A stretch of DNA of 64,000 nucleotides from Eshraghiella crossota (lineage in GTDB: Bacteria; Bacillota; Clostridia; Oscillospirales; Acutalibacteraceae). Position 1 is the stretch's first letter. Every line of letters begins with the position of its first letter. This document shows, piece by piece, positions 3,330 through 62,637 of the stretch. Made by a program: the position numbers and the translations under genes. The notes below the pieces were generated by a model, which was not told where the DNA came from, searched no databases, and worked only from the letters and a program-made list of their open reading frames with translations. The stretch spans positions 2,441-66,440 of the forward strand of contig CAVFQD010000001.1 of NCBI GenBank assembly GCA_963624605.1, read 5' to 3'.

Positions 3330-5303
3330 TTATTTTCTTTTCTTAAATAACAGGGCAAACATTATGCCGAGTATCAGTACCGCAATGCAAATTGCAAGAT
3401 AAATATAGCTTTCCGGCGAAGTAAAAGACGATTGTGCGCCTTCGTCCGTGTTGCTTTGAGCTTCGTTGTCGGGCATTTCGGGTTTATCGGAATTTCCGTC
3501 CGCACCGCTGTCGCTTTGTCGATTGCCCTGCTGTCCGTTCGGTTGACCGTTCTGCTTTACTCCCTGCGGCGATGAGCTGTTTTCGTTGGTTCCGTCGGGA
3601 GGCGTGGGTCTGCTGTCGGCACTGCTTTGAGTATCGGAAGAGCTCGGCTTTTCCGGCGGAGAGCCTTCACTGCCGTTTGCAGAATTCGGCATATTGCCGT
3701 CCTGTGCAGACTGTCCGCCTCCCGGTTCCGAATTTGAGTTGTTCATGCTTCCCATATCGCTTATCTTCAAATCGCCTGCGTAAATAAGCGTGTCGGCACT
3801 TTGGGTATCGGAGGTCGAGCCTATTGTGCCGCTTAACTGACCGCTTATGCTCTCTGCTCTCAAAATACAGAACTCCTTGAGCGTTTGCGCTCCCGTTTGA
3901 AACTGCTCGTATGTGCAGAACTTTGTCGGGTCCTTTTCAACATACGGGGAAATCATTGAAATTACGCTGTCAATCATATTTTCAAAGTATCCGCTGTCAA
4001 AGTATTCGCTTATAAATTCGCTGAGCACTTCGTGATACTGTTCGGTATATTCTTCGCTTGCGAATATCCATGCGAGCATAGGTCTGTCCTCGATGCTTCC
4101 GCCCGAAACAGGCGTATCAATCGGATAGTTTACAAGCGAAGCGGCGTCGCCCGAGGACTGAAAACCGCCGAAAGCGAGGTTGTAATCCCACGGAATCATT
4201 TGCATTTGTCCGTCATTCTCGTACAGATAATAATTGTGTATCATCGAGCCGGTGTAGCTGTCAAAATTGAGAACAAAATTGTGCACGGCAAAATAGCTTA
4301 TAACCTCCGACACATTAACGGCGCTTTCAGTGTTTTCGCCTGATGACAGCGTTTTAAGTGAGGAAATGAGGCGGTCTTTGTCGTCATCTGTTATGTCGGT
4401 CTTGGCATTATCAAATATATTTTGATAGCTGTCGTAATCGTCGTCGATATATTTTAACAGCACATCATCGCTTGCGTTCATATTTCCGCCGCCGTTTTGT
4501 CCGTTACCGTCAGCTTTGTTGTCGGGCGGATTGCCGTCGGCAGTAAAATCGCCATCTGGCATTTCGGGCGGAGAATTCGCTTGCGTACTGTTTGAAGACT
4601 GCTGTGACGGTGCGGCACTTTCATTTGCTTCGGGAGAAAAATCATCCTGTTCAAAGTCTTTTCCGTTGCCTTTGCCGCCGCCCATACTCATACTGTCGGG
4701 CTTGTAGAGCTCACCGTAGCTTTTGCCGTAATTTCTTTGCAGGAACGACTCCTCTATGCCCTCAACCGCAAGGTACAGACCCCAATCCTCGCCGTTTACG
4801 GTTATATATACATAGCTGCAAAGCGGCGAAGCAACGCCTGCAAAATTCATCATTTGATATACGAGAAAATCCTTCATATAGGTGTTGTCCTGTATGATGT
4901 TGTTAAGGCAGAGCTTGTCAAGCCCGTAATAGGTCTTTGAGCTGTCGTAATGGTCAAACTCTATCTTAAAGCTGTATCTGTTGTTGCCGTATGACGCAAC
5001 CTGCGTTAAAGATGTGTTACCCTTGCCTCTGATTGCGACATTCTTGTACGCTTCGTTGTCAATTACCACTGTGCAGGTGTAGTATTCCTCACTTGTACAG
5101 TTCGATATAAAGTCGTCCCAATCGTCCATAATTATATTTACCGTGTGAACATACGAGGTGTCAAACAGCTTTTCCTCATAGCCCATAACGCTTGACGCCT
5201 TTTTGATGCCGAGGCTTTCTCCGTTTATGAACAGCACCGTAATTATGATAGTCAGCGCAAGCACAACGCAGCAGATTTTATCAAAGTTCTTATGCGTTGA
5301 CAT
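3330..5303 (-). CDS. CotH kinase family protein with N- and C-terminal membrane anchors and long low-complexity segments
   Basis: 657 aa. CotH-like core (YSFKIEFDHYD..., YYLYENDGQMQMIPWDYNLAFGGF). N-terminal TM segment ICCVVLALTIIITVLF and C-terminal TM segment IYLAICIAVLILGIMFALLF. There are two S/N/G/Q/D-rich disordered stretches. Confidence 0.8.
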   Translation of the reverse strand: MSTHKNFDKICCVVLALTIIITVLFINGESLGIKKASSVMGYEEKLFDTSYVHTVNIIMDDWDDFISNCTSEEYYTCTVVIDNEAYKNVAIRGKGNTSLTQVASYGNNRYSFKIEFDHYDSSKTYYGLDKLCLNNIIQDNTYMKDFLVYQMMNFAGVASPLCSYVYITVNGEDWGLYLAVEGIEESFLQRNYGKSYGELYKPDSMSMGGGKGNGKDFEQDDFSPEANESAAPSQQSSNSTQANSPPEMPDGDFTADGNPPDNKADGNGQNGGGNMNASDDVLLKYIDDDYDSYQNIFDNAKTDITDDDKDRLISSLKTLSSGENTESAVNVSEVISYFAVHNFVLNFDSYTGSMIHNYYLYENDGQMQMIPWDYNLAFGGFQSSGDAASLVNYPIDTPVSGGSIEDRPMLAWIFASEEYTEQYHEVLSEFISEYFDSGYFENMIDSVISMISPYVEKDPTKFCTYEQFQTGAQTLKEFCILRAESISGQLSGTIGSTSDTQSADTLIYAGDLKISDMGSMNNSNSEPGGGQSAQDGNMPNSANGSEGSPPEKPSSSDTQSSADSRPTPPDGTNENSSSPQGVKQNGQPNGQQGNRQSDSGADGNSDKPEMPDNEAQSNTDEGAQSSFTSPESYIYLAICIAVLILGIMFALLFKKRK

Positions 5304-24892: not shown

Positions 24893-25163
24893 AGGTTGTT
24901 ATATCATAAATTATTTGTGCGACAGCACAAGCGGAACGAAGTGACGGCGGCGAGAGCCGCAATTTAGCCATTCAACGTTCTCCGAAACGGTCAAAATCTA
25001 TGATTTTGCAAGCGTTTCGTGAGGTTGTTATATCATAAATTATTTGTGCGACAGCACAAGCGGAACGAAGTGACGGCGGCGAGAGCCGCAATTTAGCCAT
25101 TCAACGTTCTCCGAAACGGTCAAAATCTATGATTTTGCAAGCGTTTCGTGAGGTTGTTATATT
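24893..25163. repeat. 129-bp non-coding tandem direct repeat, 2 full copies plus a 13-nt third start
   Basis: AGGTTGTTATAT... recurs at 24893, 25022 and 25151, giving a period of 129. The copies are identical on manual comparison. Stop codons occur in all six frames of the unit. It contains the nested hairpin CGAAACG-gt-CAAAATC-tat-GATTTTG-caag-CGTTTCG. Confidence 0.9.
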
Positions 25164-25211
25164 ATATAAAATCAGTGGAATATAAGGCTGTATTTTCGAT
25201 AATAATACAAA

Positions 25212-52059: not shown

Positions 52060-52125
52060 TTACAAAAATTTTTGAATGTTGCGTAATAAAAAGGACGGCA
52101 CAATTTTTAATTTATCTTGAACAGT

Positions 52126-52334
52126 GTAGGGCGGGGGCTTGCTCCCGCCGCACAACGCCCTTACGGGCGAGTGAAGAGTGAATAATGAATAGTGAAAAAT
52201 TGGAAAGTTGTATAATAAAACCGGATAGCACAAGTTGAAAAACATATCATATAGCGTAGGGACAGGGCTCGCCCCTGTCCGCAAGAAATTACATATGAAT
52301 TATGTTAACGGACAGCCGCAAGGGCTGTCCCTAC
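52126..52334. repeat. cluster of dispersed GTAGGG-hairpin / GTGAATA-repeat elements (copy set 1)
   Basis: GTAGGGCGGGGGC...CGCCCTTACGGGCGAGTGAAGAGTGAATAATGAATAGTGAA (52126-52196). GCGTAGGGACAGGGCTCGCCCCTGTCC (52254-52282). An inverted relative, GGACAGCCGCAAGGGCTGTCCCTAC, lies at about 52309-52334. A second set lies at 60486-60617. Confidence 0.8.
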
Positions 52335-60464: not shown

Positions 60465-60485
60465 TAAAAATTAAACGATGACACG

Positions 60486-60617
60486 GTAGGGCGGGGGCAG
60501 CGCCCTTACGGGCGAGGTAAGAGTGAATAGTGAATAATGAATAGTGAATAGGTGTGGGTGCTTCGCACGGATTAAAAACTATAACGAACTGCGTAGGGAT
60601 AGGGCTCGCCCCTGTCC
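60486..60617. repeat. dispersed GTAGGG-hairpin / GTGAATA-repeat elements (copy set 2)
   Basis: GTAGGGCGGGGGCAGCGCCCTTACGGGCGAGGTAAGAGTGAATAGTGAATAATGAATAGTGAATAGG (60486-60552) and GCGTAGGGATAGGGCTCGCCCCTGTCC (60591-60617). They occur in the same order as at 52126-52282. Confidence 0.8.
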
Positions 60618-60916: not shown

Positions 60917-61942
60917 ATGATTGAGCGTTTTGGCAAATACACATTGAAGCTGAACGAAAGGCCGTCGGTAATCGGATATGCGGGCGTAGTCGGCAAGACT
61001 GAGGGCGAGGGACCGCTCAAAGAGGAATTTGACCATATTTTTGAGGATGACACCCTCGGCGAGGAGTCGTTTGAGAAATCGGAGAGCAGTCTGCAAAGGG
61101 AGGCTGTTCTGCGTGCAATGATAAAATCGGGCAGACCCATAGAGGATGTCGAATACATTTTTGCGGGCGATTTGCTCAATCAGTGCACGGCGTCAACCTT
61201 TTCTCTGCGTGAGTTCGGAATACCGCTTTTGGGGCTGTTCGGCGCTTGCTCGACCATGGCGCTGTCGCTGGGACTTGCGAGCGTGTTCGTAAACTGCGAA
61301 GCCTCCGCTCTTGCGGTTGCGGCAACCTCGTCACATTTCTGTTCCGCCGAAAGGCAATTCCGCCTGCCACTCGAATATGGAGGTCAGCGCACCCCGACGG
61401 CGCAGAGAACCGTAACAGGGGCGGGGGCAAGCGTTGTGGCAAGGCACATTCCGAACAAGCCGTGCATAGAGGCGGTTACATTCGGCAAAATCGTTGATTT
61501 GGGAATTAAGGACTCTGCTAATATGGGTGCGGCTATGGCACCTGCGGCGGCAATGACAATTTCCGACTTCTTCTCCGACACGGGAATGAAGCCCGAGGAT
61601 GTTGATATGATTGTCACGGGCGACCTCGGCTTTGTCGGAAGCGAGCTTTTGCTTGAGCTTATCGAAAAAGACTATTCGCTTGACATTTCGTCGGTCCACA
61701 ACGATTGCGGAATGATGATGTATTACAGAGAAAAGCAGGATGTCCACGCAGGCGGCTCGGGCTGCGGCTGCGGAGGTTCAATCCTCAACACCTATTTTAT
61801 GAACAGGCTTGAAAAAGGCGATTTTTCAAAAATACTGTTTGTGGCAACCGGAGCGCTGATGTCTCCGACCACATCCTTGCAAGGGGAGAGTATACCGTCT
61901 ATAGCGCACGCAGTGCTTTTGTCAAAGCCCGACAACAACTAA
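60917..61942 (+). CDS. spoVAD: stage V sporulation protein AD
   Basis: 341 aa thiolase-like protein. Its length and sequence are typical of SpoVAD (ERPSVIGYAGVVGKTEGEGPL..., GDLLNQC, GACSTM, SGCGCGGS). Confidence 0.85.
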   Translation: MIERFGKYTLKLNERPSVIGYAGVVGKTEGEGPLKEEFDHIFEDDTLGEESFEKSESSLQREAVLRAMIKSGRPIEDVEYIFAGDLLNQCTASTFSLREFGIPLLGLFGACSTMALSLGLASVFVNCEASALAVAATSSHFCSAERQFRLPLEYGGQRTPTAQRTVTGAGASVVARHIPNKPCIEAVTFGKIVDLGIKDSANMGAAMAPAAAMTISDFFSDTGMKPEDVDMIVTGDLGFVGSELLLELIEKDYSLDISSVHNDCGMMMYYREKQDVHAGGSGCGCGGSILNTYFMNRLEKGDFSKILFVATGALMSPTTSLQGESIPSIAHAVLLSKPDNN

Positions 61943-62422
61943 AGGAGAATAGCGTGAAAAATCACGCTATTCATAATTATAGTGCCCTCAAAATTCGCCT
62001 GCGGCAAAATTTTGAGCCGGCAGAAATCACCATCACGCCTGTTCAGGCAACGCAGGTTAAATCGGTGATTTCCAATAAAAATTTGTTGCCTGAAAGGCTA
62101 TGGTGATTAGCGTGAAAAATCACGCTAATCATAATTATAGTGCCCTCAAAATTTGCGATTGGCAAATTTTGAGATGGCAGAAATCACCATCACGCCTGTT
62201 CAGGCAACGCAGGTTAAATCGGTGATTTCCAATAAAAATTTGTTGCCTGAAAGGCTATGGTGATTAGCGTGAAAAATCACGCTAATCATAATTATAGTGC
62301 CCTCAAAATTTGCGATTGGCAAATTTTGAGATGGCAGAAATCACCATCACGCCTGTTCAGGCAACGCAGGTTAAATCGGTGATTTCCAATAAAAATTTGT
62401 TGCCTGAAAGGCTATGGTGATT
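61942..62422 (+). repeat. three head-to-tail copies of a 157/158-bp hairpin-dense non-coding unit
   Basis: AGCGTGAAAAATCACGCT recurs at 61951, 62109 and 62266. I found no differences between copies 2 and 3. Copy 1 differs by a compensatory pair in hairpin 1, a few changes in hairpin 2 and 1 extra nt. See findings. Confidence 0.9.
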
Positions 62423-62581
62423 TTTATGTTTGAACTTTCCGAAGATTTAAGAGTAATATCAGCGTTTACCAAAACTATAAATATATTAACGGCAGTTAAA
62501 ACGGCAATGACGGTTGGGATAATAGTCTACTGCGTTTTTACGGGCTTCAAGGGAGTAAGCCTTGTAAAAAACGCTAAATAA
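62414..62581 (+). CDS. candidate small membrane protein (51-55 aa, not in ORF track)
   Basis: ATG at 62414 (MVIFMFEL...) or 62426 (MFELSEDLRVISAFTKTINILTAVKTAMTVGIIVYCVFTGFKGVSLVKNAK). One predicted TM helix. A strong terminator follows. Confidence 0.4.
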   Translation: MVIFMFELSEDLRVISAFTKTINILTAVKTAMTVGIIVYCVFTGFKGVSLVKNAK

Positions 62582-62596
62582 CAGATTATATGCGGC

Positions 62597-62637
62597 TCGG
62601 GGGACTTTGATATTTTACAAAGTCTCCCGACTTTTTT
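62597..62637 (+). terminator. rho-independent terminator
   Basis: TCGGGGGACTTTG-loop-CAAAGTCTCCCGA (one G-T pair) followed by CTTTTTT. Confidence 0.8.

Follow-up and report, generated by a model that had tools for sequence, protein, structure and literature searches.

A dispersed, hairpin-dense repeat, probably inserted between the Shine–Dalgarno sequence and the start codon, in Candidatus Fimenecus-like gut Clostridia

Introduction

In those parts of PMC12548453 that cite Supply 1997, mycobacterial interspersed repetitive units (MIRUs) are described as mobile elements that insert at start codons with downstream expression preserved, and whose internal open reading frame (ORF) is translationally coupled at −4 nt. 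By analogy, we regard them as the closest precedent for the subject of this study, a non-coding unit of about 157 nt that stands as a tandem array between spoVAD and a small ORF in a 64,000-nucleotide stretch of DNA from Eshraghiella crossota (GenBank assembly GCA_963624605.1, contig CAVFQD010000001.1, positions 2,441–66,440 of the forward strand), which at its full length is referred to here as the window. Like MIRUs, the element is a short, dispersed, non-autonomous repeat that occurs in variable tandem arrays (one, two or three units at the spoVAD locus), is co-oriented with genes and lies at operon junctions and start codons. MIRUs, which are 46–101 nt long, contain the coupling ORF, whereas the present element, compared with them by description, is longer (157 nt) and hairpin-dense, occurs in Clostridia and not in Actinomycetota, lacks a conserved ORF or frame, and carries its own Shine–Dalgarno (SD) sequence together with an anti-SD hairpin.

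Other known families share some of these traits. The IS200/IS605-derived PATEs and the REP/RAYT system have no terminal inverted repeats or target duplication, carry hairpins at or near their ends and insert in one orientation beside a short flank motif. The element resembles them in its hairpins, in lacking inverted repeats and duplication, and in a left hairpin foot that pairs with the flank; it differs in that its flank motif is only GAWT-like or (A/T)T after the SD, with no cognate transposase or full-length element in the loci that we retrieved, and we know of no member of the PATE/REP family held to a strict position 3 nt before the start codon. Correia, ERIC, BOX and RUP repeats, which PMC3575422 and PMC3049150 cite, are also small, structured and dispersed, are co-transcribed with their neighbours and can alter expression, but they consist of inverted repeats and lie in both orientations at a variety of intergenic sites, none of them, to our knowledge, specifically between SD and start codon, whereas this element is confined to that spacer and to the orientation of the gene. 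Translational riboswitches and RNA thermometers share with it an anti-SD strand that has two exclusive partners, one being the real SD and start; the element, however, matches no aptamer or known class and is near-identical before unrelated genes, and its predicted −38 kcal/mol hairpin is far too stable for a thermometer. Putative mobile promoters (Matus-Garcia, Nijveen and van Passel, 2012; PMC3575422), finally, are defined as stretches of 50 nt or more that are at least 80% identical in front of non-paralogous genes. Paralogous copies of the element are about 0.92 identical over about 157 nt and stand, with no Rfam match, before non-homologous genes within and across related genomes, but the definition of that class covers positions −150 to −50 and is silent on the SD–start spacer, on arrays and on an anti-SD hairpin, and a promoter function of the element is doubtful. 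Set beside these systems, the element appears to be a dispersed intercistronic repeat targeting translation starts, whose architecture and SD–start position appear undescribed in Rfam 15 and in the literature searched, where no paper contained its core sequences and those on 'Fimenecus' were microbiome surveys.

Results

Three tandem units belong to a dispersed family

Tandem Repeats Finder reported an array at 61950–62422 of the window (period 157, 3.0 copies, 97% matches), which alignment resolved into unit 1 (158 nt, 61951–62108), unit 2 (157 nt, 62109–62265) and unit 3 (157 nt, 62266–62422), all on the + strand, unit 3 being the terminal copy that adjoins the gene. The triplication at 61951–62422 with identical copies 2 and 3, first noticed in an initial annotation of the window, was thereby borne out in the assembled sequence, and a script check agreed that unit 3 is the same as unit 2; across the 158 columns of the three-unit alignment copy 1 differs at nine, one in the first hairpin (H1) and the remainder, a 1-nt indel included, within or beside the second (H2). 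Units 1 and 2 were also detected with nhmmer (177 bits for unit 1). That the units are non-coding and hairpin-dense, as the annotation had proposed, likewise held: each contains at least one stop in each of the six frames (script), and unit 3 with 28 nt of downstream flank (62266–62450) folds at −67.7 kcal/mol, compared with −38.0 ± 3.6 in dinucleotide shuffles (z = −8.4), none of 200 being as good. Nor does the sequence fit a known RNA class: there was no Rfam 15 match at the gathering score across the window, be it to riboswitches, leaders, small RNAs, ribozymes or group II intron domains, and at E ≤ 10 the region around the array gave only chance microRNA and small nucleolar RNA matches far below threshold.

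Searches of genomes and metagenomes yielded many copies beyond this genome. A scan of one genome per species with a core sequence pattern found 40 loci in seven species-level metagenome-assembled genomes (MAGs), two of them titled Candidatus Fimenecus sp. and the others Clostridiales, Eubacteriales, Ruminococcus sp., Anaerovoracaceae or 'bacterium'; MAG MGYG-HGUT-04027 had at least 21 pattern matches at 17 loci. A metagenome scan that fixed only AAATCACC, GGTGATT and ATGGTGATT and left the core free gave at least 120 loci; among the matches listed, 91 were true members, mostly from human-gut assemblies, and 29 of the 120 listed were discarded as unrelated chance matches, mostly AATGGTGATT minisatellites. 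A scan of viral contigs gave no matches to the element. All counts of copies, arrays and gene families given below cover the retrieved loci (L numbers), that is, the genome scan and the metagenome matches listed. In the 1.3 Mb of these loci a unit profile (nhmmer) found about 165 copies, some of them selected by neither pattern. The window itself has a fourth copy on the − strand at 186–296 (E = 1.7e-25), which is 5′-truncated (model positions 42–161) and lacks the 3′ strand of stem c; the repeat finder matched the array to 170–296 on the opposite strand, and GGTGATTATTATG at 191–179 leads into an ORF for a membrane protein, cut short by the window's edge.

Variants comprise a second subfamily, an H2-long form, a form lengthened by about 110 nt, a unit with an internal deletion and stubs that measure about 22 nt. 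Longer or variant forms precede cmk and another gene at L124 1621–1890 (also L058, L116 and L141) and L073 6264–6436; in the longer ones H1 is followed by about 110 extra nt with a second, diverged H2-like hairpin and then by the normal 3′ half. At L052 (~3900–3990), the orthologue of the window's second locus with its MNYLILL... membrane protein, the last ~22 nt are left (CTGAAAGGCTATGGTGATT), behind a TATAAT-like box, and by sequence comparison the element here seems to decay from its 5′ side with the SD end retained.

The element separates the native SD from the start codon

Downstream sequence of at least 200 nt was available for 132 terminal copies, and every one of them adjoins an ATG, GTG or TTG in gene orientation; a long ORF opens at this codon in 129, the other three being interrupted versions of families already found. 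At least 53 gene families, with no shared theme, lie 3′ of the element; identified by N-terminal sequence, they include tyrS, leuC, leuD, pyrB, pyrE, purN, hisB, argH, argJ and argR as well as cmk, nusB, trx, HPr, tpiA, ppa, NADK, transporters and others. Spacing between GGTGATT and the start is 3 nt in 43 of the 53 families and 0 nt in five. An SD at normal spacing is provided by the element, whose GGTGAT usually stands 6 nt ahead of the ATG, and the native SD of the gene is pushed about 160 nt upstream per unit. An SD-like tetramer ends 1–4 nt 5′ of the element in 63 of 71 non-redundant first-unit flanks, compared with 16% of random positions. Since 50 of the 71 arrays begin at most 60 nt from the end of a co-directional ORF, these junctions fall inside operons, and in nine cases the element's TAG serves as the stop codon of the upstream ORF. 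The element's left boundary is AGYGTGA and its right one CTATGGTGATT, and orientation follows the gene on both strands of the window.

We are close to certain that the element is a dispersed repeat inserted at ribosome-binding sites, and the array in the window probably consists of three tandem copies of such a non-coding insertion element of about 157 nt belonging to Candidatus Fimenecus-like gut Clostridia. Of the cis-regulatory leader proposed in the initial annotation, the leader position stands, whereas a role specific to this locus does not, given the 53 or more unrelated gene families.

At the pyrB loci (L021 ~257–460, L040 ~1481–1690, L032 ~2651–2710 and L050 ~60–105) a conserved leader (...CCCTCGGATGAAAGCTGGATAGG...) directly precedes a 5′-truncated or variant unit. 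This leader, for which no Rfam match at the gathering score was obtained in L021, L040 or L032, could be a candidate pyrimidine attenuator.

Empty and filled sites define an inserted block

Two relatives have the spoVAD locus without the element. In L174 (SpoVAD 79% identical; gene order araA–araD–spoVAD–small ORF) the site is GGGGGAAGAAAATG, reading ...GCAAAGGGGGAAGAAAATGTTTGAT, and the start of the small ORF overlaps the spoVAD stop; in L177 (SpoVAD 73% identical; followed, as in the window, by Rrf2 and metH genes) it is GGGAGATTAAAAATG, reading TAATTGGGAGATTAAAAATGGGC. The cleanest pair was found at tyrS, where the empty site is TAGGAGGTAT/ATTATG (L014, L028 and L115; the slash marks the junction) and the filled one reads CAGGAGGTAT/AGTGTG... 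at its left end (L018) and ...GGTGATT/ATTATG at its right (L023), so that the inserted block extends from AGYGTG to GGTGATT with no duplication or loss. Further empty/filled pairs among the retrieved loci concern NADK, argR, pyrE, trx and leuD; in the window's species the element is absent at leuD and present at leuC. The tyrS locus L018 (2–380, minus strand) has a complete Rfam T-box leader, with the element downstream of it, and at tyrS of MGYG-HGUT-04027 the element is placed after the T-box terminator and the SD, three other genomes being empty there.

A target-site duplication of GAWT was considered and rejected, because the 5′ flank in many cases does not agree with the 3′ end and because insertion at tyrS was clean. 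With regard to miniature inverted-repeat transposable elements, we found no terminal inverted repeats (AGYGTGA... and ...CTATGGTGATT are not inverted copies) and no target duplication at tyrS. Integron attC sites, CRISPR, REP/BIME and group II intron remnants were also set aside on grounds of position, synteny or the Rfam outcome.

The unit is more conserved than third codon positions of the genes beside it

In 12 orthologous pairs from different species, unit identity averaged 0.93, compared with 0.83 (range 0.67–0.92) at third codon positions taken from the first ~600 nt of the adjacent gene, figures that are somewhat inflated by ascertainment since both retrieval patterns required exact matches at 21–24 positions, parts of the 3′ half. 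In the most diverged pairs, with third codon positions at 0.67–0.74, the unit is still 0.90–0.92 identical. Each retrieved set also conserves segments that its own pattern left free, and copies found by the profile only differ by single bases (e.g. in L025, L039, L032 and L040). Orthologous copies in MGYG-HGUT-04027 and MAG CAVAPB01 are 0.94–0.96 identical, whereas paralogues within a genome average 0.916, a relation that fits vertical inheritance under purifying selection better than homogenisation and by which we ruled out concerted evolution as the sole cause of conservation.

Unit length ranges over 154–164 nt with no preference for multiples of 3, and the H1 loop has three, four or five A, which shifts the frame of the GTG behind the orphan SD. 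A protein-coding repeat, for which conservative-looking substitutions between the window's two loci in one frame had spoken, was rejected because of the 1-nt indels, the A3–A5 loop and the lack of a common stop; a leader peptide or upstream ORF coupled from the orphan SD and the H1 GTG was rejected because the ORF ends at six or more different places.

Three hairpins are supported, one of them over the new SD

All stems named in the initial annotation proved to be exact reverse complements when checked by script: H1 (62105–62115/62120–62130), H2 (62145–62156/62162–62173), P1 (62180–62188/62221–62229) and two long-range helices (62199–62208/62242–62251 and 62182–62190/62257–62265), as well as H1 of copy 1, GAATAGCGTGA/TCACGCTATTC (61947–61957/61962–61972), where an A:T to T:A swap retained pairing. 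In unit 3, H1 (62262–62287; 11 bp, loop AAAA; equivalents in the earlier units at 61947–61972 and 62105–62130) crosses the junction with the preceding unit, and H2 (62302–62330) has 12 bp, extended in the family form by GCC/GGC past a 2-nt bulge. There follow an anti-SD-like strand, GAAATCACCAT (62337–62347), which can pair either with a decoy or with the SD at the 3′ end; stems b (GCCT/AGGC) and c (TTCAGGCAAC/GTTGCCTGAA), which form the body of a long hairpin (62351–62412) and show compensatory changes; within this stretch the internal SD-like decoy itself, GGTGATTTC (62378–62386), an exact reverse complement that is the 3′ strand of P1; and ATGGTGATT (62414–62422), the 3′ end of the element, with GGTGAT as the replacement SD and a predicted probability of being unpaired of about 0. 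We take ATCACC within the anti-SD-like strand to match the 3′ end of 16S rRNA, and GGTGAT is presumably complementary to AUCACC in the 3′ tail of that rRNA.

An alignment of 111 distinct units was used to examine covariation. The proposed helices pair in 96.9% of cells, with double-sided changes at 11 pairs as against 4.8 ± 1.2 in shuffles (none of 500 reached 11) and at most five when the 3′ partner was slid by 1–3 columns. Covariation is strong in H1 (pair 10–32, AU 34 and UA 28; pair 14–28, UA 98 and CG 12); H2 has one clear compensatory pair (54–84, CG 92 and UA 18), stem b has pair 106–171 (GC 103, AU 3 and GU 4), and stem c has three pairs with rare double changes (113–165, 116–162 and 117–161) and some mismatches too. 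RNAalifold, run independently on the 111 members, returned H1, H2 and the long a–b–c hairpin that hides the start. Moreover, the four flank bases are complementary to the four bases after the H1 3′ arm at 3.12 of 4 positions on average, compared with 2.34 ± 0.09 in shuffles (none of 2000 as high); at the spoVAD locus these are GAAT/ATTC in the window and GATT/AATC in L004 and L017. From these sequence comparisons, three predicted hairpins are supported: H1, closed over the junction with the native flank, H2, and one of about 25 bp with the new SD and AUG as its 3′ strand.

The mutually exclusive pairing noted initially was also recovered, AAATCACCAT being able to pair with the internal GGTGATTT (P1) or with ATGGTGATT (stem a). 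For the last unit the fold with the SD hidden is that of minimum energy (−38.3 kcal/mol) and the P1 fold, with the anti-SD paired to the decoy GGUGAUUUC, has −28.3; in the predicted ensemble the SD is paired essentially throughout. A hidden start codon had been proposed on this basis, and the start region is indeed predicted to be buried, but the likely real start is at 62426 and not the ATG within ATGGTGATT. An SD-free pseudoknot (P1, P2 and stem c together) was judged sterically doubtful.

A possible role in translation and its difficulties

On the mRNA, the element would act as a shared, structured translation-initiation leader. The anti-SD-like AAAUCACCAU would first pair with the internal decoy GGUGAUUU, which is transcribed about 40 nt ahead of the real SD, and leave the SD free; at equilibrium it would pair with the real SD and hide it, a state predicted to be 10 kcal/mol more stable, so that the SD-free form may exist briefly on nascent RNA until stems b and c drive the switch. 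The element would thereby damp or time protein synthesis from many housekeeping genes, a tentative proposal that we would put at somewhat below even chances. Alternatively, ribosomes might use the exposed decoy and the A/U-rich loop as a standby site, or the hairpin might be opened by a shared factor acting in trans. As to spread, the element has hairpins at its ends, lacks inverted terminal repeats and target duplication, and pairs with the flank through its H1 foot; these traits suggest transposition in trans by a single-strand, hairpin-guided route, or else copying from one ribosome-binding site to another through short homology, and arrays could arise because the 3′ end of each unit recreates an SD-plus-spacer target before the GTG of the next; any particular mechanism of mobility is nevertheless doubtful. 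Taking both sides together, the element might be an undescribed site-specific mobile element that homes to the SD–start spacer, perhaps via base pairing of its hairpin foot or anti-SD strand with the target, and is retained by selection as a genome-wide translational control module before dozens of housekeeping genes in an uncultured lineage of gut Clostridia, a speculative reading to which we give only a minor share of our belief.

Several observations, to which the ascertainment in the conservation figures belongs, weigh against the reading as an inserted, structured leader. With the SD of essential genes (tyrS, cmk and tpiA) under a predicted hairpin of −38 kcal/mol, adequate expression is hard to explain unless the hairpin is opened, and given these genes it cannot be a simple off switch; at L052, where only the last ~22 nt survive, the hairpin is dispensable. 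Stem a never covaries and P1 has no two-sided change, only one-sided ones (position 91–143 being G-U, G-C or A-U), so that the SD switch rests on sequence conservation and energy models. Counts of G-U versus A-C mismatches (12 versus 10 in H1, 9 versus 25 in H2 and 3 versus 10 in stem c) show an excess of G-U at P1 only, almost wholly from a consensus G-U pair; lacking a sense-strand G-U bias, the helices could matter in RNA, in single-stranded DNA or in both, and a call between RNA and DNA structure by these counts was abandoned as uninformative. Finally, no autonomous partner element or transposase-bearing version with the same ends was seen in the 1.3 Mb of retrieved loci.

Alternative explanations

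The element could instead be a purely selfish, non-autonomous transposon (an IS200/IS605-type PATE or similar) with no host function, its hairpins being single-stranded DNA signals for a transposase encoded elsewhere, its SD only making insertion harmless, and its conservation stemming from mobility signals, recent spread or gene conversion. Much of the family's behaviour would follow: presence/absence polymorphism among close relatives, hairpins at both ends without terminal inverted repeats or target duplication, complementarity between the native flank and the 4 nt behind the H1 foot, helices in which G-U does not exceed A-C except at P1, tandem arrays with 5′-truncated and internally deleted copies, and functionally unrelated downstream genes. 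It is harder to reconcile with copies that persist at orthologous sites over 8–33% synonymous divergence while changing two to four times slower, with orthologues exceeding same-genome paralogues in identity, which argues against homogenisation, with retrieved DNA devoid of a transposase-bearing version of the same ends, and with an orientation that tracks the gene on both strands of the window and not one replication strand. We judge an entirely selfish element to be possible, at roughly one chance in a few.

The triplication might also be an assembly artefact, with one or two units at the true locus. Of 117 contig-internal arrays, 104 are single, 12 double and one triple, the last being that of the window, which is the only complete three-unit array; other assemblies have one unit (L017) or two (L004 and L005) at the spoVAD locus, copies 2 and 3 are identical, and many contigs terminate inside the array or repeat. 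The array of L001 runs into leuC instead. Yet arrays of three or more non-identical units exist elsewhere (L048), copy-number variation is expected for arrays of this kind, and the element is real whatever the true unit count, and so we hold the artefact to be rather unlikely. At L001 (4026–4350; GCA_963620115.1), where SpoVAD is identical to the window's, two units connect spoVAD straight to leuC, and another contig of that assembly (L010, 1–102) begins within a unit 5′ of the small ORF; the spoVAD–leuC join is either a chimeric join via the repeat or a genuine rearrangement.

Less probable still, and in our view a long shot, is a mobile promoter cassette in which an outward promoter (GTGAAA–18 nt–TATAGT) in each unit would let tandem copies raise expression. 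A promoter scan gave a 9/12 consensus match in each of the three units, subfamily 1 often has TATAAT or TATATT at the −10 position, and in operational terms the family qualifies as putative mobile promoters (PMC3575422); in subfamily 2, however, the −10 position reads TTGTATTG, the −35 lies within the covarying H1 stem, 50 of 71 arrays are inside operons, and 5′-truncated copies without the promoter region are retained.

A ligand- or signal-sensing riboswitch or attenuator controlling the locus downstream of spoVAD, the favoured logic of the initial annotation, now seems very improbable despite the exclusive pairings at the SD and start region and a 3′ half that is strongly conserved, predicted loops included. 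Even at E ≤ 10 no Rfam family matched beyond chance; the unit is 90–95% identical, with linkers about as conserved as stems, before 53 or more unrelated genes; at tyrS a complete T-box already stands upstream of the added unit; close relatives have orthologous sites without it; and it has no terminator. A shared global signal (temperature, a protein or a small RNA) may nonetheless act on the element.

Tandem small-RNA genes of the LhrC type or a protein-binding operator array, suggested by units that are repeated and structured and by H1, a perfect palindrome that we take to resemble TGTGA-N-TCACA operators, can be given almost no weight, because the units neither contain nor precede a sense-strand terminator, terminal units are all fused to the start codon, the −10-like box is not retained in subfamily 2, 104 of the 117 contig-internal arrays are single-copy, and H1 arms that covary (CG or UA) around a loop of 3–5 A are ill-suited to a dimeric, sequence-specific operator.

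Local context and other repeats in the window

The upstream gene, spoVAD (60917–61942, +; stop TAA at 61940–61942), was identified from its ORF and from a Pfam SpoVAD match on the identical protein in L001 and L004. Its stop is followed by the native SD AGGAG with flank AAT (61943–61950), which the SD-like flank statistics identify as the SD orphaned by the insertion, and the array begins 8 nt past the stop, immediately behind AGGAG; G61947-A-A-T is complementary to the ATTC after the H1 3′ arm. At its 3′ end, GAAAGGCTATGGTGATT, the array is followed by TTT and the ATG at 62426, which opens a small conserved membrane ORF (62426–62581, +; 51 aa from this second ATG).

The ATG within ATGGTGATT, which is in frame with the gene here and in 48 of the 53 families, is probably not ancestral in the window: element-free orthologues begin at an ATG aligned with 62426 (L174, MFDPTDDIRVISAF; L177), making this second ATG the likely real, ancestral start of the small ORF, to judge from sequence, and the MVIx- N-terminal extension in gene calls is attributable to the element. 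Gene calls in L004–L013 begin at the element's ATG (window 62414–62425), giving a spurious MVI(x) on dozens of proteins. The membrane ORF of 51–56 aa after spoVAD is kept with or without the element (window 62426–62581, L174 3537–3695 and L177 3580–3750), and no Pfam family is on record for it. A terminator scan found an intrinsic-terminator-like hairpin with a T run 3′ of the small ORF, outside the element (62597–62630, +), beyond which lie the genes for an Rrf2 regulator and metH.

Two further repeats were observed in the window. An intergenic tandem duplication at 24893–25166 (129-nt unit, 2.1 copies, 100% identical) has no Rfam match, and a separate intergenic family of REP-like form occurs at 52098–52280 and 60465–60617, one copy standing just 5′ of spoVAD; in it GTAGGG is followed by GC-rich hairpins (GTAGGGACAGGGCTCGCCCCTGTCC), and it also has a CGCCCTTACGGGCG hairpin and GTGAATA heptamers in runs.

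Discussion

We know of no transposition mechanism that would insert DNA 3 nt before start codons, as seen in 81% of the gene families, and the element family makes a mechanism of start-codon insertion directly testable. If the proposed reading is true, a small element can insert between a ribosome-binding site and a start codon without killing the gene by bringing a spare ribosome-binding site, and dozens of essential genes share one structured leader. There are practical consequences as well: the repeat breaks, and can mis-join, short-read assemblies of these genomes, gene calls gain false MVIx- extensions, and the variable arrays could serve as strain markers. Beyond these, translation in a gut genus that occurs in many human-gut metagenomes may prove to be under a common layer of control, which the family could bring to light.

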